A stretch of 64,000 nt of DNA from Styela clava (Eukaryota). The DNA lies in assembly GCF_964204865.1 (NCBI RefSeq), contig NC_135257.1, forward strand, positions 12,896,001 to 12,960,000. The letters run 5' to 3'. This document shows, one piece after another, positions 19,750-34,300 of the stretch. The notes under the pieces are model-generated. The model was not told the DNA's origin. It ran no database searches and was given only the letters and a program-made list of their open reading frames with translations. Positions within the stretch are counted from its first letter, which is position 1, and every line of letters begins with the position of its first letter. The position numbers and the translations under genes were made by a program.

Positions 19750-22700
19750 CAGTGGCGGCGCGTCAATAGGGCCAACCGGGGCAATGCCCCGGTTGTTTTT
19801 TCGGTATAATAAAAAATATTCAAAATATACCTCAATATCGGTTGCACAGACTGTCTACACTAGCCATATTCTCCCGACATGGTTCATTTTTTGCTCGCAA
19901 AGCCTTCGCCGAACGTCGACGGGGCGACGCCGATTTTGCCCCGGTTGCTCATTGTATATCGTATTCTCTCTTTTATCTTCCACTCGCCGCGTTTGTCTCG
20001 TTTGTTTTCTGTTTCTTTTACTAAATCATCGGGGCCGATCGGCGCTAGCCCCGAAATTATGACGACACAATGCCGACGTTTCTTACAACAACGTGTTGAC
20101 ATATTCACGCATTCCTTCTCGTTCGTTGGTTGCTTGAAGAGTTGATAGTTTCCTCGCCTTCCTTTTTGTCGCTTGTTTCGCTATTTGAATCAGTTAGAGA
20201 CCTTTAGTCCATTTGCTTTCGATTTTCCACATTCCTTTTGAGCTCCTCACTTCTTTCCAGCTTCGCATTTCTTAGCCTTAGACCTCATAATGAATAAGGT
20301 TGATGCACTACTTCGCACTCCGTTTTCGCAACTGCCGCTGGAACAAAAACTAGAGGTACAACGTCTTGGGCCTTATCAACCAAAAAATTGTTCACTGGAA
20401 CAATCCCATGACGGAGGAAAGCGTCGGCGTACATTCTGCGCAGAAACTTGGTATAAAAAACACGAATGGTTGTGTTACAGCGAGGACAAAAATGCACTTT
20501 TTTGTTTTTATTGCCTACTTTTTGCTACCGCCCGTGACTCACGTTGGTGTAAATTTGGTTTTAGAGATGTTAAACATCTTCCCGAGCGTGCCAGGGATCA
20601 TCAATCTTCTATGGAGCATCTGGACAATGCAGTAAAATACCGAACATTCGGAAATGTTAATATTGCAGCACAGTTGGATGAAGGACGCGCGGTTTCTATT
20701 CGTCGGCACAACCAAAACGTCGAGAAAAACCGCCTTGTTCTCGGTCGATTGATAGATGTTTTGAAGTTCATTGGTTGTCACGAGCTGTCCCTCCGTGGGC
20801 ACGATGAACGGGCTGGCTCTTCTAATAGAGGGGTATTTTTGGATATGGTGGAATACACCGCATCCCTAGATACAGTATTGAGAGGTCATCTTGATGCCGC
20901 AACTGTTTCGAAAGGGACATCTAAGGATATCCAAAATGATTTGCTCGACTCAATGTATAAAATTTATTTACAACATTTGGCTCTGGAAATTGAGAATTGC
21001 CAGTTCCTTTCGATTCAGTCTGACGAGACAACTGACATCACGTGCGTTTCCCAACTGGCTGGGATTTTTCGGTTTGTGAAAGATGGTAAACCTACCGAGA
21101 GATTTCACAGCTTTGTACCAATCGTTGATCGCACGGCTTGCGGGATATCGGCTGTACTGAAAGAAGTGTTACAGCCTTACAACGCGAAGTCAAAATTGAT
21201 AGCTCAAACTTATGACGGCGCGGCAGTCATGAGTGGGTCGAAACATGGTGTTCAAGTTTATATAAAAGAAGATTTTCCTCATGCGCATTTTTTACATTGT
21301 TATGCACACCAATTTAACCTCGTTATTAAAAATATGTGTCTTGATACCCCTCTTGTCCGTATGTTTTTTGCAAATGTTTCGGGGTTTTCTTCATTTTTTT
21401 CCGTTTCGCCGAAGCGCTCTGACCTCCTTCGCCAGATATGTAGCCGTCGTCTCCCAGCTTGTGCACCAACACGTTGGAACTTCCAATCACGCGTGGTGCA
21501 GGGCGTGTCCGAAATTAGGTCTGAGCTCATTGAGTGTTTCAATGGCATTCAGAGCTCTCCGGTTTGGGACGAACGCTCTGTGAGGGAGGCGGCAGGTCTA
21601 AAGCGTCTGCTAGAAGATGGTGAGTTTTCATTTTTTCTCGCTTTTTTCTCCACAATATTCTATCACGTGGATGTATTATACGGCGCATTGCAGTCAAGGC
21701 TAATGGATGGAGCGTCTGTGCAGTCGTGTATTTCAGACTTCTGCGATGCTGTATCTCGTATCCGGGAAACAATAAAATACGACGACACATGGAGTGCTTC
21801 TTTACGCCGCGGGCAAACAACGCAGCGTTTGATTTTGTCTGCAAAGGAATGCTGTGACATTCTTGTGAATCAAATAGGCGATCGTCTGCGCACTGAACAC
21901 CTTGCCGCGTTCTCTTTGATGAACCCTAAAAAATTTTCAAAATTTGCACGTCAATTTCCCATCCATTTGTTGGCTACTGTCTCCAAATTTTACCCCATGA
22001 TAAACGTGGGTAAATTGGAAAATGAATTGCGATGTATATACACCAATCAAACTTTTTTGAACATCACATCAACTTGCGCGCTCTATGGGTTCCTCATAGA
22101 TAACACTCTAGTAACTACCTTTGCGGCGTCTGCAAAATTTCTGGACATCATTTTGACGACGCCTATTTCTTCCGCCGACGCAGAGCGAACATTCAGCACG
22201 CTGAAGCGTATTGAAACGTATCTCAGAAACACAATGAAGCAAGATAGATTAAATTCCTTGGCTGTTTTATCCATTCACAGAGACGTTATTTCTGGGATGC
22301 ATGACTTTAATCAGCGCGTTATTGAGCATTTTGCTTCCAAGAAACCGCGGCATGTTGCATATATGTTCAAGCAGTAGAAGTCTAGCAGCATATATATCTA
22401 TGAGTGAGCGACGCATGTCCTTATCTTTGCATTAACTTTCCTTTCTTCATAGTAACGTTTTAAACCTTATTTTAGGTTTTGTCTGCTTTCCCGAAGTTTC
22501 TGTTAATATGTCATTGTATTTATCTGGGTAAATATTGCCTTTCCTTTTGAAAGAGGTTTCAAAATAAACTATGTCTATATTTATTAATCCCTTGACTTAG
22601 ACCGGTTTTAAAGACACTTTCTTATAGTTAAAAATTGTCGCTTTTGCCGATTGGTTGTTACCGATGGAATGGTTTTTATACTCATAAAATGATGGGAGAA

Positions 22701-23840: not shown

Positions 23841-25792
23841 TATAGCAACTAACCCCCAAATGTACCCCATTTCATGTTAAAAATATGAAAACAAAGTTAA
23901 TTTTCCCCAAAATTCGAACAAAGACTTTCGTAGGAATCAAATTACACCAGTTTAAGAAACATAACATGTTCCATCCATTCATTATTAAATTAAAATTTAT
24001 ATTCTCAAGACCTTTGACACTGATTGAAATAATTATATCTAAGTTCCCATCCGTACGATGTACCTAATTACCCTTGTTGAGATGATAGGAATTTCTGTTT
24101 ATAACTTGAATCACGAGCTCGCGTTTACAGTATTTAATTGGATTTATGATCAACGTATAAAAGACTCCTCCGATATCTTTCGATAGGAGAAGACGATGTA
24201 AACCACTCTAAGCTAGTCTGGATAAATGTTATAAGATTTATATTCTGTGTGTTGTGGAAATTTACGAATAAAAACATATAGAGATTTTTAACGAATATGG
24301 ACTGTATTGAACATCGATCGAAATGAACTCTTTTAGAACATAATATATGTTCGAGGTGAAAAACCTAATCAAAAACGAACTGTTGAAAACAATGAACTAT
24401 ATGGACTGTTTTACTGTAAATTACGCGCTCTATTCCGAACAATAGAGAAATTGTCGCGCTTACCTAATGGATATACAGATCAGGAGCATGAAATTCCACA
24501 ATTTGTTTCATGATTTGCAAGTTTTTCTCCTCATTGAGACAGACATTTTTCATTCTTCCACTAATACTAAGGTAAAGTACTTCTTTGTTTTCTTATATAT
24601 ACATGGCGTTTCAATCGACTTTCAATTTTTATAAATCAATTAATGGTAACAACTTTGAATATTCTAATTTCAAATACCTTTGAAGAGATTTATATTATTG
24701 AATATTTGTGGTTAGCATTCCTTTTCGATTAAATAGATTTCGTTATTATTAAAATGCTTTCTAAAAGTAGATTCGAGCGAGTCATACTTTTAATTATTTA
24801 CAAAGCCGTCATATAGAACGGTAAAATAATAAGCTCGTTTAACAAAAATTGTATCCAAAAGCGTTATTTTTTCAAAAAAGCCCTGAGATGGCATAAACTT
24901 AAAAATGCGTTTTTTTCATCCCGACATGGAACAAGCATATATTGACCAACTAGGTCGCAACGCGTTTTTTCTTCCCGACATGGGACAAGCATATATTGAC
25001 CAACTAGGTCTACAAAATCGTAACAATGCGATAAAGCGAGTATAAGTAATTTAACTTAGCGAAATACATTGAATTGAAAATATGTTTTAACCGTCCAAAC
25101 CAAAATTTTTAAAATAAAAATACGCCATCTTTCTGTAATTCTACTTTACAATCTTTACTCTTTCTATAAACTCTTCTTTATTTCAATGTCGTGTCTCATT
25201 ATAGATCATATACATTTAAATATTTTTTTTTGACCTATATCATTAATTTTAGCATTGTGTATTGTATTTTTCTATTTATTTTCAATTTATTAGAGGGTGA
25301 CAAATCTTTAAACTTCCAGTTAGTAAGATGGGGAGATAATATAGCAACTAACCCCCAAATGTACCCCATTTCATGTTAAAAATATGAAAACAAAGTTAAT
25401 TTTCCCCAAAATTCGAACAAAGACTTTCGTAGGAATCAAATTACACCAGTTTAAGAAACATAACATGTTCCATCCATTCATTATCAAATTAAAATTTATA
25501 TTTTCAAGACCTTTGACACTGATTGAAATAATTATATCTAAGTTCCCATCCGTACGATGTACCTAATTACCCTTGTTGAGATAATAGGAATTTCTGTTTA
25601 TAACTTGAATCACGAGCTCGCGTTTACAGTATTTAATTGGATTTATGATCAACGTATAAAAGACTCCTCCGATATCTTTCGATAGGAGAAGACGATGTAA
25701 ACCATTCTAAGCTAGTCTGGATAAATGTTATAAGATTTATATTCTGTGTGTTGTGGAAATTTACGAATAAAAACATATAGAGATTTTTAACG
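23841..25792 (+). mobile_element. LTR-like non-autonomous element: two 453-bp direct repeats (23841-24293, 25340-25792) around a 1046-bp non-coding interior
   Basis: I counted 4 substitutions between the repeats. Each repeat has TATAAAA (24156/25655) followed by AATAAA (24267/25766). A purine tract AAGATGGGGAGA (25325-25336) precedes the second repeat and TGG lies 4 nt after the first. No TG..CA termini or TSD found. Confidence 0.55.
24907..25010. repeat. ~54-bp tandem duplication inside the LTR-like element
   Basis: GCGTTTTTT(T)C.TCCCGACATGG.ACAAGCATATATTGACCAACTAGGTC occurs twice. Confidence 0.8.
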
Positions 25793-26676
25793 CATCTTCA
25801 TTCACGTGGGCGTTGAAGCTGAAGGGTGAACGGGTAACTTGCAAGTCAGAGACAATCTACGAAATAGCAATATACGGTAACATCACATTCATCTAACAAT
25901 CATTTGTGCTATAACTCTTCCTTCTGTCTTTATAGAACTCTGATGTTTTTGAATGACAATAGGAGTATAGTACGCATTTGGTCTTCCAAGTATTTCTGCA
26001 TTTTGCTTTTCCGTTTGTTGTTGTTTTTTATTATCCAGAGCGGCCAAAATAAAATTGATTGATATTTTAGTCAGCTAAAAATTGCCATTTTCGTTGAGGG
26101 AACTGTTGAACTACGGCTGTCGGTTTCATAATCACGTGGTTTTTATCACGTGATATCTATCACCGATTGATTAGGTCAAGGAAGCAAACGGAGTTCACGG
26201 CGGGTTTGCGATTTGCGTTTTTTCACCTTCCCAACGCATCTGTCCCGCAGCGCGCGAGAATTGCTTTTTTCATTGATGCATACAAAGGCCTTTAAATGAT
26301 GAACATTCAAGTTCACTTCATTCTTCTTGAACTAAGCCGTAGAATGCAAGGAAGATGCCTTGTGACTATTCAGGCCGCTCTCTGTGTCTGCCAGTAAAAC
26401 AGATTTCCGCAGTTCAGCAGTTTAAAAGATTGATAGGATTTTGGCATTGAACTGGCATTCGATTTTCACGCAAATTGTTTGTGCTAGTCCAGATGTTAGG
26501 GAGCGAATTATATTGCTTGCTGCGTGATGCCTGGATACAGGGATACGGCATGTAGTAGCCAGAGAGTAGTGGATTCTGTATCACTTTCACTGTATTCTGT
26601 TTGAATTACTGACTAATTTAAGCCTTATTACTTTTTAAGAACTTTATTTCTTACTGATTTAACCATCACACTAAAA

Positions 26677-29600
26677 ATGTCAAGTACTATTGAAGATGAT
26701 CGCAGTGCCATAAGCAAGCAATGGGACAGTTTCAAAGAATTTGCATGGAATCCAAGGGAAAAAACAGTCATGGGAAGAACCGGGAAAAGCTGGGGTATAA
26801 TTTTATTCTATACAGTTTATTACATTGTTTTATAATAACTAGTGCAATTGCAGAAATGCGTGATAGCTGTCCTAATGCTGTAATGCAGTGGGTTTTGGCT
26901 GCCTGGAAAATGTATATTCTACCCGTTTTCTGGTTTTGTTTTCTGTTTACAAATTACTGCATTATAATTGTAATAATCATAATGCTGTAATGCATTTCTT
27001 CACAATACTTTGTACGGTATGTTTCAAGTGTCCAGACTATCTCTCACATTTTTGCTAGTTAAAAAATTCGCAATGCTCTACATCAAAAATTGAAGATAGT
27101 CTTTTTCTAATCTTAAAATTTCGCAGTTTTTAAAACTAAATCTACTGAAGGTGCTGTATGTATAAAACGAAGTTGATTCCGCCTTAGCCTATCTCACACG
27201 AATAGAGTTTCATCACTATATTTTTATCTGTTTTCCCTTTTCAATTATATTTTATTGTATTGAAATAGACGGCCCATATTTGTACAAGCAAACCGCATAA
27301 ATATGTCTGAGAATAGAGCTTGATTTTTGTATTCTGGCATTGATTTATGAATGACTTTTTCTGTGTATAACACAAGATCACCTGCTTCCCAATTCAGGCA
27401 GTGTGGAATTTAGGTGAAATTAAATTATAAGCCTTTCGAATACATACTGTATAATACTAATGTTGGAAATATTAATATGTTCCAGTTTGTTGACTGGAAC
27501 GAGTTTAAAATGCTTCAAATCATTTTTATTATTCACTAATGTTATTGACATTTTGATGCCCTTGCTATAATAAGTCCTTGTTAATGAACTTGCCATTTTT
27601 TTGCCTCTGAAGAGGAATTTTTGGGGTTGGTTTTGAATGAATGTTAGGTTTATCTGAAATAAAATAAAAAAATAAAATTTCAGAACTATAAAATATTTGT
27701 TTTTTTGTTGGCTTCTGTGTTGTAACAAAATTTTCAAATTTTGATTTTATTGATGCCGTTCAACGTCATGAACCTTTTTATTATCACCCCATACTGCATA
27801 GTATGATTTATCACGGCCTGTTAAATTTCTACCATCTGAACATGTCAAAGCAAAATATATTGTTTTATATACAACTTTAGTGGAAAACCACCACAGGCGC
27901 AAATATTTTGACTTACTCACTTCAATATTCAATAATACACTGCCCACTTACTTCCTATCATTTAATATCTCGCAATATGAACTGTTATTCAGATTTTAAC
28001 TGCCTGTATATTGACATTCACATTCTACCGTGTGTGAATAGTCGAAGATAAATCATAAAAAACATTGTTGTTTCATTTTTTCTCAACCTGTATTTTTTCG
28101 GAATTTTTAAGGACTATCGTACTAAAAATCTCATCTAACAAGCTCGGATTACCACGATTAACAGTTAAACTCTTCTTGCTTGTTAAAAGAGAGAAAATGT
28201 TTTCGCAAATATAAAATGGGTTAAAAATCTAGCTTTCCGGTTGCTTGGGTACCAGGTATGTTGTCTGTTCCTAACCAACCATTAAAAATCGTGATTCCTG
28301 GTTACTTAAGTTTTATAAAAACTCTTATTAGAGGTTGCCGAGTGTGTTCCACTTCAGTTGATAGTTGCATTAGACATTCATTGCCCGAGGGTATAATCAT
28401 ACAGTCTTTCTGGTGTTCATTTCTTGAGAGGGGCTTGGTTTCACTTTGTCAGTTCTATTATAAAACGAGTACAATGAGTTCTGACAAAAAGGAAAAGTCT
28501 AGATTAGATATTGCTCGTGAAACCTGGAATGATTTTCTATTGTTTTTGTACAACAAGGATGAAGGCACTGTATTAGGCAGAAATGGAAATAGCTGGTGTA
28601 AGTGTATTTGGCAATGAGATGGCAAAATATCATTATTCTTTAAACTTAATATTTTTCTTAAATATATATAAATGTATGAATAATTTTAAGTAGCAAAATT
28701 AGTCTAATTTGATATAACACATTCATGTATATTCTGAATTTTATGTTTCTACTCTCGCTCATGCGAAGAATCATTGTTTATTCTTTTTTTTTCTCAGCAA
28801 AAATTCTCGTGTTCTACATGTTCTACTACGGATTTCTGGCATGTCTCTTCGCAGCATCTATCAGCATTGTCCTCAGTACACTGAGTGATTACACTCCCAA
28901 ATACCAGACGAGACTGCAGACCCCTGGTAAGGATTTATCATGACTTAAATCAACTCCCATATGGTAATTATAAGGAACAATATATCACAGAGGATATTTT
29001 TTTTGTTTTATTGAGTTATTGCCCTTTTGAAATATTAGCAATTGGCTCAATTAAAATTTTTTCCATGCTGTTTTCTACTAGTGTATTACCTCTTAGAAAA
29101 TTTTTTTTATTCAAATATTGAACTTTGCATTAACAGGTTTGTGATTTTAGCAATATGAAATACTTCTTTGTTTCAGGTGTTGCAATTCAACCCAAAACTC
29201 CGTCCGATATCGAACAGACTAGCAACATCAAATACAATCTGAAGAATTATCAAGATAATGCCGGCTACCAGCGTTTGACACTTCAGATGGAAAAATTCCT
29301 TTATCGTAAGATGCCATTTCCTACTGTTTATGAATAAACTGGATTAATATGTTTGTGACAGCCTCACTTATCATTGTGGTTGGTAGGGTGGAATTTTCGA
29401 AGTGCTACAAGCCTACAATTGATTTATTTAATGTTCTAATCTTATAAAATCAGCTGCCTAAGATTATTGATTACTATGTAAATTATTACATTCGACCTAC
29501 TCTGATTGATTTGTTATTGATCCGAAACAATGGATTAGATGGCTAATGAACCTTGAGGTTTGTGTAGACTTCTCTCAAAACCTTACTATTTATGTCAAAT

Positions 29601-31320
29601 TCAACATTTGACAGTTAACTGTATTCTGTATTGCAAATTTGTGAAATGTTTTGCACGAAACTCTTTGAAATGTTTTCCTACCGCAGTTCTACATTCAAAA
29701 TGATATTGTCTCACTTTGTAATATTCATTAAAATATTTGTTTTGCAAACAGCATATGCAACAGTGAATCAAACAGATAATGAAGTATTCCAAGATTGCAT
29801 TATGACCCAACCACCTTCCACCAACCAAAATTTTGAAAAAGATCAAATCGCTAAGTCCTGTCGATTTGACATAACTAAATTGGGACCATGTTCCGTGAAA
29901 CCATATGGATACGACAAAGGCCAACCATGCATCTTTGTAAAAGTCAACAGGGTAAGAAATGCTGGACCATGGGAATTATTAATGAGTTCTGTACTTCCAT
30001 TTATCCTTAATTAATTAGCAGTATTAGCGAACATGATAACGATTGATTATGCATTTCAGTACTTGCTTAGACAGCGTCAAAATTGCAGGTTCTAAATTTA
30101 TACTTCAATGAACCTTCCTCATGCACTATTATGTATTGATAGACTCTGAAAATGTCTCATCTATTATTCATTGAAATACTCCCGGAAGTTTCAATTTCAG
30201 TCATAGCTAATATTACCAAAATTTCTTTGTTAGTATACAATAAGATTTCTGAATCATATTAAAATATTTTGTGTTTTACGCAGTCTTTTTTGTTTAAAGA
30301 TCATTGGATGGTACCCTGTCGGATACACCAATCTTTCAAGGGCCGTAGGTAATTCACAGTCTGATGCGCCACCTCTTTCTGATGTACTTGCTACCTATGG
30401 ACAGTCATATCAACCATATCTCATGTACACACATTGCTATGGTGATGTAAGTTACAATTTTCGCTGATTTATCGATATGTTATGAAGTTATCTTTCGTAA
30501 ATAAGCTTAATGGACTATCTTCCATAGCTACCACTATATAAATACACCTATATATATGTGGGGCAGTTTTATAATATTTTTCTTCAATTCCTAAGTTTTT
30601 ATCTGAGTTCAGTCCTGTGTTCAATGCAGATAGTAGATGATATAGTTATAAATTTATTCTGATTTCAGTAATAACTCTGTTAGTTATTTAAGTTTGATTT
30701 TCTTTTTAAGTTTGTTTTGAGTTTCAACCATAAATGAACTTAAGACAGCTTCCACTGAGCTGGAAAACGTTGAATTTGAATGTTTGTGGACTTTAAATGT
30801 TTCATTTATTAAGAGGCTGAACTGTGTTTTACAGGAACCGGAGGACAAAAATAACTTGGGAGGAACACTCGACACGAAGTACTTTCCAACACATATGGGC
30901 ATTCCATTTGTGTATTTCCCATATGCAGGAAAGAAACGTCAACCTGCATACATTAATCCTATTGTGGCTGTTCAGTTCACAAATGTTACAGTAAGATTTT
31001 ATTTACAACTATTACTCATACAATTTTTTCATATCCTTGAATCTGTTCTGAAAACACCTTTGATATACATAACAGATTGAACAGACAGACATTGGGTAAA
31101 AATGTCCTATTGGCATTGCATTTCTCAATGTTTTATCATTTAGGTTATTTATAAAATATCATTATTAACACACTGTTCTAATATATCACAATTTTCAATA
31201 TTTCAGAAAAATGTTGACATCACCATCAAATGCAAGGTGTATGCTCTCAACATTCGTGACAACAAGGAAATGGGTGAAGGCTACTTTAAATTTGACATGA
31301 GAATCGACGACAAAGAATAG
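26677..31320 (+). CDS. ATP1B: Na+/K+-ATPase beta subunit, isoform using first exon 1a, 330 aa
   Basis: Exons 26677-26794 (MSSTIEDD..WDSFKEFAWNPREKTVMGRTGKSW), 28798-28926 (TM KILVFYMFYYGFLACLF..PKYQTRLQTPG), 29177-29305, 29752-29951 (CRFD..LGPC..YGYDKGQPCIFVKVNR), 30300-30446 (IIGWYP), 30835-30990 (YFPYAGK..YINPIVAVQF), 31207-31320 (IKCKVYALNI). Six ectodomain Cys. AATAAA at 31733. Confidence 0.9.
28474..28597 (+). CDS. ATP1B: Alternative first coding exon 1b of the Na+/K+-ATPase beta gene (332-aa isoform, 28474-31320)
   Basis: Encodes MSSDKKEKSRLDIARETWNDFLLFLYNKDEGTVLGRNGNSW with a phase-1 GTAAGT donor, the same phase as exon 1a, and splices in frame to 28798. Confidence 0.85.
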
Positions 31321-34300
31321 CTTTTTATGTAACATTTCATACCTTCATATCACTACTCAGTGTAAAACTTTGATTCACCTAGTCAATATAAAAAAAACAA
31401 TTCTTTTTGCCATGTTATTTTGAAAAACCATACAAACCTGGGTATTACCATCTAATAGTTTCAGAACCTTTAAAACTTTGCTATGTTGAGGGGCAATCTT
31501 GCATTTTATTACTAACACTGAGTGAGTGGTGTGATTGTTGAACCATTTATGATATGTGTTAATGTTACTTCTTGTTTTGTTTGGGTTTTACACTGCAGTT
31601 CACAATATTTTACTAAAAATCGAATTTTTAAGAAGCGCCGCGGTTGTCAATATATAATCCTAGTCAATTATTATTACTATTGTATTCACTGGAGCAACCG
31701 TTGTTTTTTTGTAATTGTCAACATTTGTCTTCAATAAAATATGACCGGTTGAAATTTAGCAGCTTCTGTATGTTGGGTCACTGGGAAAGTTAATATAAAG
31801 GCACATCGGTTTATATTATCTGGGATAGGTTCTGTGGTTAACTGGTAAAATAACTAACGCCTACAAGCGCGGGGACGGGCGTTACGCAACATTTTCTAGT
31901 TGTTTACATAAGGTGGTCAAATATTTGTGTTTGAGAATTGCATACTCGCTGAAGCATCAAAATGTATTCATGGTCAAACACAGTAGTCTGGATTTAGTCC
32001 CAACTGGTTTTCCAGTGAAGAACGCTCTGATTGGATTTGTAAATTGAAAGGGAATTGATCTTGGTAATATGTCGTCTACCGATTCATTGATCATGACTGA
32101 TCTCTGATTAGTAAACATGATACGATTAATTGCTTTTGTTCTCTGTAGGTCATTTGAAAATAATCCGATCGTCTGCCTTGACATCTGTTTGCAAAACGTT
32201 TAATTGAAAACATTGATCCATAATCTCTGTGCGAACGTTCGTTGCTGAGAAATAGATTTGCCCCAATTTCCGCGAAGTTAATCATTGACGCGAGAGAATG
32301 CCGGCGTGTCCTCTATAAAGACTTTTGAAGGTCGTACTGCGGATTCGCGCCGACGCAACTCCCTGCGAGCTTCATTCGCCTTTTGTCTGGAAGCAGTCAA
32401 GCGAGGAAATATCGAGCTATGAGTAACCACGAGTTTCCGACAGCACTAATGCTGAAAAACATTATTAAATTACGTTATTAAATCTGTTTTCTAAAAAATA
32501 TTTGTCAGTCATGCAATAACAAAGTCAAATTATTTTGTCGCTTAGTCATGTTGTCTCGTGCCCTCCAGGATTAGAGTTTGTTGCTACCTATAAAATTACA
32601 AACAATCGAGAATGACAAATTATGCAAAATATTTTAGCGCTTATGTTCATTAGCGCCCTGTTACCTTGTCCTTGTAAATGAGTCTACAAGTTAAATATAT
32701 TTATTTGGTTTTTATAGTCACATTTGTTAAATACAAAAAATTTATACCACATTTGACCTATTCCATGGATGGAAATAACGTCTAAACCAAAAGCCGTCGA
32801 AGTCTGTTGAATACATTTAGCTTTTGGGAAATTATTAACGAGGACCAGAAAGGCGAGTAGCATTAACATGATCAATTTCTCAAATTTATTAAGAAAAACT
32901 AATTCATGGCGAATCTGTTGTATTCGAATAGTTTCTTGCTCAGAGCGGATGCGTGAATGGAAACGCGTACATCGCTAGTGGTTGGTTAAATAAAAGACAT
33001 TAGTGAGATTTGAATTTGCGAAAAAGACATATCATGCATTCACGAGTTTGTTCCAAGCCGATGTGTTTTAATGAACAAAACTTGTTACTACGGAGTATTG
33101 GCTTGTACTAAGCATAATGTGGAGCAAATGTAAATTTTCGTTTCGTGACGCCATCATCTGACGAAAGTTGGTAGCCAGAATATCAAATCTTACGTCTTCG
33201 ACATCAAGTTTTCGTATTCCCAATTTTTTCTCTCTTTAGCATCATCTAGTGGCCAAACCTCCGTGTCAACCAAATGCTAGGTGGCGTGGGCAAGCAACAG
33301 TACAAATAAACTCCGCATAGGTTATTGTTGCTGGTAAAATATACGGAAGAAGTATAGTTACATATTTTATAGGAAGCTTCTGTGTCTTTCAAAAAAATAT
33401 CGGTATATTCAACAGCATCTGGAGTGAACGAATGGATCATTCAGATAACAATTTTTGTGCGAGAGTCCACGTACACAACGATATTAACTGGTTTCATGAA
33501 AGAATTTCCAGACAAACCATCGAAATGGTCCACAGATCTGATAAGATTGAAAAGTATTGGGCACAAAGCCATAAAGCGCGAATGGACAGAATAGTAATCT
33601 ATAAATCTACACCAATCGCTCGTAATAAAATTTGAAATATCGAAAGAAGCTCATCAACAGCATCGTAGAACAATTTCTACATTGTGTTCTTGTTAAACAC
33701 AAATTAGGTTTATGTATTGATTTTTGCTAAGATGTCGTTACTGATAATTGATGCTGACAGGACAAAGGTCGTTTTTCTAATTTAATATTATAAAGAAATT
33801 TGATGTATTTTGGTTAAAAACTTTTTGCGGGACCTCAACTTGCGAGAATATAAATTTCCGAGAACGCACCGATTTTCACATCCTACCGAGTGGTATCGAT
33901 GTGTAAGTTTATAATATTTCAAGGTTTAAAAAATTGACATCAGCTTGCATTAATCTAAATCTACTTCAAAAGATTTCACCATGCGGAATTTTGAAATACG
34001 TGGTTTTGCAATCGGATGTATTTACCCCTAGAGATCATTTGTGGTTAAATGTAATTTGTAATATTACAACCAGTCTCTTGGGATATCCGTCTCCATCTAT
34101 GAGTCACCAATTGTGTGTGTAGCAGCCCGCCATAACAAAGTACCCGAATGGCTGCCTGAAATTCCTGGTTTCAGACAACTCCACAACATATATCAACGAC
34201 TTATACCAATAGTTAGTGGGATTGAGACACACACGTTCTGACTGCTAAATTTTACTGAGTCTGTGTACTAAGCTATTAAAGATAGGGTTTTATGCCCATC

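Follow-up and report, generated by a model that had tools for sequence, protein, structure and literature searches.

The stretch of Styela clava DNA analysed here (assembly GCF_964204865.1, contig NC_135257.1, positions 12,896,001-12,960,000, forward strand) is 64,000 nt long; we refer to it as the window, and all positions below are window positions. It contains a Na+/K+-ATPase β-subunit gene in which two first exons, 1a and 1b, each supply a cytoplasmic tail to a common transmembrane exon and ectodomain. The features of the locus are as follows.

26640..26676, + strand: likely 5′ UTR of isoform 1a, downstream of the acceptor-like AG at 26638-26639; candidate start or spliced-leader acceptor
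26677..26794, + strand: coding part of exon 1a, 118 nt from the ATG at 26677, a 39-residue cytoplasmic tail; joined to 28798; RefSeq isoform X2
26795..28797, + strand: intron of isoform 1a, 2003 nt, with exon 1b inside it; branch A at 28780, acceptor AG at 28796-28797
26795..26838, + strand: read-through of the 1a donor, a 52-residue frame together with exon 1a; identified by profile score, shuffles and simulations
28453..28473, + strand: likely 5′ UTR of isoform 1b, downstream of the AG at 28451-28452; candidate start or spliced-leader acceptor
28474..28597, + strand: coding part of exon 1b, 124 nt from the ATG at 28474, a 41-residue cytoplasmic tail; joined to 28798; RefSeq isoform X1
28798..28926, + strand: exon 2, the common transmembrane helix (PF00287 positions 33-74, 47.8 bits; RNA joints)
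29177..29305, + strand: exon 3, ectodomain (RNA joints; model identical to RefSeq)
29752..29951, + strand: exon 4, ectodomain, with four cysteines (RNA joints; sequence model)
30300..30446, + strand: exon 5, ectodomain (RNA joints; model)
30835..30990, + strand: exon 6, ectodomain (RNA joints; model)
31207..31754, + strand: exon 7, coding up to the stop at 31320, then 3′ UTR (model; poly(A) loose end)

Both first exons end in a phase-1 donor (GT at 26795, GTATAA, for exon 1a; GT at 28598, GTAAGT, for exon 1b), and in RNA run X2 a poly(A) loose end lies directly behind 31754. The initial annotation had described two ATG-containing exons, each with a complete β tail and a phase-1 donor leading to the common exon at 28798, and these coordinates hold. 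The spliced models of 330 aa (1a) and 332 aa (1b) are identical to RefSeq isoforms X2 (P0002) and X1 (P0001), respectively, and are the same apart from the cytoplasmic tail and the junction residue. Scores of 268 and 275 bits against PF00287 (curated cut-off 23.3) place the whole proteins in the β-subunit family, and both first exons match positions 4/5-31 of the profile, 1a with 28.4 bits and 1b with 20.8 bits. In a full-length alignment to PDB 3wgu_B (E 1.7e-54) the short tail with its motif, the one helix with its FYxxFY-type start and six ectodomain cysteines align. Own-genome searches, in which counts are lower bounds, found no second β locus; this is the only Na+/K+-ATPase β gene detected in S. 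clava and is apparently single-copy. Our main reading, to which we assign a probability of about 0.8, is that this gene makes two isoforms through alternative first exons spliced onto a common transmembrane exon, and that the pair of exons likely goes back to an old exon duplication.

To follow splicing we used assembled contigs from 8 of the 16 listed runs, of which six (X1, X2, X3, X5, X6 and X7) are same-organism runs. None of the examined runs is recorded as RNA; that they contain RNA follows from joints located at GT..AG boundaries. Both junctions whose mapping had been proposed as a check were seen: 26794>28798 (1a to exon 2) in 6/6 same-organism runs from three studies, and 28597>28798 (1b to exon 2) in three of the six (X2, X5 and X6; two studies), in contigs whose short side measures 30 letters each, one below our 31-letter bridging rule. 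Together with the RefSeq-identical models, these joints bear out the earlier claim of two β isoforms built on one ectodomain from a duplicated first exon. Contig depth for 1a and 1b varies between runs; since contig depth cannot rank expression, we claim no tissue specificity. Two runs assigned to other organisms, X10 and X12, carry near-identical sequence at a depth of 4-6 and were therefore not treated as relatives or used for dN/dS. A 38-nt insertion allele is present in intron 1 at 27449/27450 (runs X2 and X3).

One contig of run X3 jumps back from 28779 to 26795 with a single T between the two positions, where the genome has an A (28780) located 17 nt upstream of the acceptor G. Reverse transcription across a lariat branch point is known to leave such a mismatch at the back-jump. 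The contig is a lariat of the whole 2003-nt intron, and 1a transcripts lose 1b in one step. No joint from 1a to 1b was present in the 8 runs examined (contigs drop rare forms), and no joint from upstream into exon 1a or 1b was present in the same number of runs, examined from 25500 or 26050. Thus, as far as contigs from 8 runs and a single lariat can tell, the two first exons never occur together. Classical mutually exclusive internal exons are cassettes joined to a common upstream exon, and no such joining was found. Both exons start with an ATG, neither is entered by a joint from upstream, 1a is not joined to 1b, and there is a single lariat spanning the whole intron; exons 1a and 1b are therefore alternative first exons, and the label ‘mutually exclusive’, used in the initial annotation, does not fit them in its classical sense. 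The initial annotation had also argued that tandem inclusion looks excluded, given the TAA reached when 1a is spliced to the AG at 28452. This splice does read into TAA, but an open in-frame 1a fusion would result at 7 of the 30 other AGs scanned from 28100 to 28597, so the reading frame alone cannot rule out tandem inclusion; the better evidence against it is the missing 1a>1b joint and the lariat contig.

Exons 1a and 1b resemble each other when anchored at the donor, with 27/52 nt identical (shuffle p 2.5e-4), or 40/82 nt over a longer span (shuffle p 5e-5), and 12 of the last 27 residues identical. No likeness was found between their flanks. Taken together, these comparisons indicate that the two exons are homologous but old. 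Both first exons also show signs of maintenance. In a comparison with one relative, identity is 82% for the 1a tail and 76% for the body; for the last 17 residues of 1b, the score with the corresponding tail of cluster c39 is 85 (1a scores 44); and among the variants listed all coding variants in 1a/1b (3/3) are synonymous.

A feature absent from the initial annotation follows the 1a donor. Read through the donor, the frame continues for 13 codons, GIILFYTVYYIVL (the split Gly counted), before TAA TAA; GIILFYTVYYIVL resembles the start of the β transmembrane helix and together with exon 1a makes up the 52-residue frame. A family search and an unrelated β protein both extended their alignments through the donor into the intron, and inclusion of the read-through raises the PF00287 score by 20 bits (48.5 vs 28.4). 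Scored with a profile of 149 family segments, the read-through reaches 28.5 bits, compared with 39.2 for exon 2 and -28 for the 1b read-through; it is the best of the 6979 GT sites in the window (next best 11.9), scores at least as high as 42 of the 149 natural segments, and is matched by 0/100,000 composition-keeping shuffles. At the other six donors, read-through compared with the next exon scores -10 to 1, against 29 for 1a. The likeness ceases at the double stop (p 0.62 beyond), and no further β relics were found in intron 1 beyond the 13 codons. The feature was noticed post hoc and its register was picked by protein likeness; with this reservation, the scores argue that it is real.

Two accounts of the read-through compete. 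We give slightly better than even odds to selection on the short peptide, now or until recently, and somewhat poorer odds to a dead relic, a fragment derived from exon 2 or a lost paralogue and copied together with exon 1 when that exon was duplicated. The read-through and exon 2 share 19/36 nt, distributed over the codon positions as 6, 10 and 3 of 12, and neutral decay simulated from exon 2 never reached the score at the observed identity (12 settings of 20,000 draws each; simple models without indels). When decay was started from any family segment, the signal survived in 3% of cases at 0.2 and in 0.05% at 0.5 changes per site, being mostly lost by 0.2-0.3 changes per site. Both results speak against a relic, as do the shuffles, the restriction of the likeness to the codons before the double stop, and the lack of a source paralogue in searches of the own genome. 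Decay could, however, have been slowed if the U-rich stretch aids the weak donor, and several properties of the read-through favour a relic. Its spacing is one residue shorter than in the stored family proteins (0 with the same spacing), no RNA enrichment over it is visible in the contigs, and its hydrophobic stretch comprises 13 residues after the Trp (mean hydropathy 2.1), which is short of the approximately 18-22 residues of a full-length single-span membrane helix. Moreover, in an ascidian-like genomic contig (L030; 5316-5435; 5999 onward) exon 2 starts with GT directly after the acceptor AG, so that a fused copy could create a donor.

If selection has acted, one candidate target is a protein. 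Unspliced or intron-polyadenylated 1a RNA would encode a 52-residue ‘mini-β’, consisting of the tail and the α-contacting half of the helix without the ectodomain, which could occupy the β site of the α subunit and serve as an internal control on the assembly or activity of the pump. We consider this bold proposal less likely than not. Intron 1 contains AATAAA at 27658 and 27671, candidate signals for RNAs that terminate within it. Contigs across the 1a/intron boundary have just 25-30 letters in the exon and so do not demonstrate intron retention, and the 52-residue frame is not among the four members of the protein cluster. Should the frame be made, its product would be similar to FXYD proteins, phospholamban and sarcolipin in size and in having a C-terminal hydrophobic stretch, and would differ from these single-span regulators in being cut from the β gene itself and in having only 13 hydrophobic residues. 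It would then be a pump regulator carved from a β gene, of which we found none described; if the peptide is not made, the read-through still offers a rare legible record of the origin of a duplicated first exon with its donor. No paper on a tunicate two-tail gene or on a truncated β from the 1a donor was found in the open-access literature.

The choice between the two exons is likely set by the position of the 5′ end of the mature RNA, with exon 1b coming first only in RNAs whose 5′ end would fall between both exons. A second promoter is, in our judgement, the most likely source of the 1b 5′ ends. The alternative, which we consider rather unlikely, is a single promoter near 26210 with a spliced leader joined to AG 26639 to yield 1a, or to AG 28452 to yield 1b, in which case 1a is lost in a long outron. 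The arrangement of ATGs would suit such a mechanism: the 1a and 1b ATGs lie 37 nt and 21 nt downstream of an acceptor-like AG, and upstream ATGs are found only ahead of those AGs (0 in 26640-26676 vs 8 in 26211-26676; 0 in 28453-28473 vs 3 in 28101-28473). Likewise, contigs extend to 26211-26220 in runs X3 and X2, yet in runs X5 and X6 of one study a contig end abuts the adapter at 26643, although contigs cannot prove a start. Trans-splicing of a 16-nt leader with loss of the outron occurs in Ciona, according to the accessible part of PMC3074122. Against a leader, no leader-like loose end was present at AG 26639 or AG 28452 among the loose ends listed (contigs may lose short tips), the 1b contig of run X6 is unbroken from 28101 through 28452, and no report of a spliced leader in Styela was found in the open-access literature. 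For the second-promoter reading, the contig ends at 26211-26220, 26643 and 28101 are hints at start sites, which contigs cannot show directly. An in-frame ATG at 28258 that would extend 1b by 72 residues was rejected as a start, one run carrying a TTA>TGA allele at 28283. Separately, TCAGTT hexamers are located upstream of the 1b ATG at 28449-28454 and 28354-28359, with the AG at 28451-28452 inside one of them; they resemble an initiator element, and the likeness may be due to chance.

Of the 20 other clusters inspected, 5 combine one body with two tails and 15 show one tail or none; two of the inspected clusters are large, with 15/17 and 15/24 members listed. In Ciona intestinalis, RefSeq isoforms X1 and X2 share 100% of the body and 39% of the tail; the corresponding values for Schistocerca X1 and X2 are 100% and 37%. 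Three clusters placed on the tunicate side by the body tree have two tails with bodies 94-100% identical (one cluster is partial), and in L019 and L020, two transcript contigs, the switch falls on the same Trp codon, with 99.5% identity after it and 57% before. In L030 the proximal first exon is of the 1b type with the same phase-1 donor, and no second tail was found within 5.3 kb upstream. A first metagenome scan confirmed none among 595 stretches. As a side observation, P0016-P0020 are β subunits about 480 residues long whose N terminus is extended by a very long charged segment.

In a tail tree of 34 columns, 1a groups with four tails of near relatives (support 69/98) and 1b with one (86/84). 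Lineage-specific duplications were rejected by none of six AU tests on the tail-only tree (p 0.17-0.34), and Styela-Ciona tail pairing gave p 0.06 over 17 aa and 0.29 over 27 aa; neither analysis rejects independent duplications. Parsimony would nevertheless place the two-tail state before the Styela-Ciona split. The tunicate and insect systems are unlikely to go back to a single duplication in the bilaterian ancestor. The tail switches at the same Trp, and in Styela, Ciona and Schistocerca alike one tail is of the W type and the other of the Y type; however, both residues are frequent at this position (W in 52 and Y in 41 of the 95 motif-bearing among 140 representatives), which led us to discard the W/Y contrast as evidence of deep homology. 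Styela-Schistocerca tail pairing gave p 0.19 and 0.31, and the AU test was uninformative; a common origin with the insect exon pair is thus not supported by these comparisons. Finally, the initial annotation named as refuting the case that one of the exons is part of a separate truncated gene. Applied to exon 1a, with that gene lying upstream and 1b as the true first exon, this reading is refuted for the present gene by the joining of 1a to exon 2 in all six same-organism runs; moreover, no ectodomain relic was found in intron 1, and whole proteins in relatives carry 1a-type tails. The helix-like read-through resembles the stump of a paralogue, and such a gene may be the origin of exon 1a.

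Drosophila nrv2 is a published precedent: in the accessible part of PMC2172966 it is one β gene with two transcripts that have different 5′ starts and common 3′ exons, and, as in Styela, where two complete tails are joined to common downstream exons, Nrv2.1 and Nrv2.2 differ only in the cytoplasmic domain. The fly has further β genes (Nrv1; same source, accessible part), whereas the Styela genome shows one. Both isoforms are moreover already present in automated annotation of Styela clava (XP_039271281/2) and Ciona intestinalis (XP_078487327-9). The two-tail layout is therefore known and is neither new nor lineage-specific, and the view that it is peculiar to this lineage has to be given up in light of Ciona, the three tunicate-side clusters, Schistocerca and Nrv2. 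What sets the Styela gene apart, as a variant of the Nrv2-type layout, is the helix-like read-through frame, which is not mentioned for Nrv2 in the accessible part of PMC2172966. The two-tail layout recurs in tunicates and insects, so that it was either retained from far back or invented repeatedly at the same intron.

As to what the tails might do, Xenopus work points to a K+-dependent interaction of the β tail with α (PMC2120891, accessible part), while a swap of the vertebrate β1 and β2 tails barely changed the Q/V curve (PMC4742777, accessible part). In the fly, the barrier is rescued by either Nrv2 form, and both are found at septate junctions (PMC2172966, accessible part). Because the tail swap had little effect and both Nrv2 forms rescue, we infer that separate expression control is likelier to be the main use of the two exons than functional tuning. 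The main gain would be that a single-copy gene can be controlled separately by tissue or stage, and any tuning of K+ activation or trafficking through contact of the tail with α would probably be modest. The Styela gene offers a clean test of the role of the β tail, on which the accessible parts of PMC2120891 and PMC4742777 disagree. Here, in the sister group of vertebrates, an apparently single-copy gene swaps tails naturally while helix and ectodomain stay the same.

Vertebrates have the separate genes ATP1B1-4, which vary tail, helix and ectodomain together, whereas the Styela gene varies the tail alone. Paul et al. (2003 and 2007) reportedly compared the two Nrv2 isoforms in function. For the putative partner subunit, 7 of 43 α candidates were scored; one multi-exon locus (L031, G000:C4:11030000-11039999) has motifs of a Na+/K+-ATPase α-type pump. 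Six intronless frames of 1004-1024 codons (L008-L013; G000 C6, C10 four times, and C18) were also noted. L008 matches SERCA in PDB, L009-L013 are 76-80% identical to it, and the four C10 frames are 97-99% identical to each other.

Upstream of the gene, a hAT transposase frame of 711 codons with DUF4371 and a hAT dimerisation domain occupies 20242-22377 (+), about 4.3 kb from exon 1a. A 300-nt direct repeat follows at 23841-24140 and 25340-25639 (99% identical, 1499 nt apart), and between 25500 and 25995 many RNA contigs have loose ends, suggesting a dispersed repeat.
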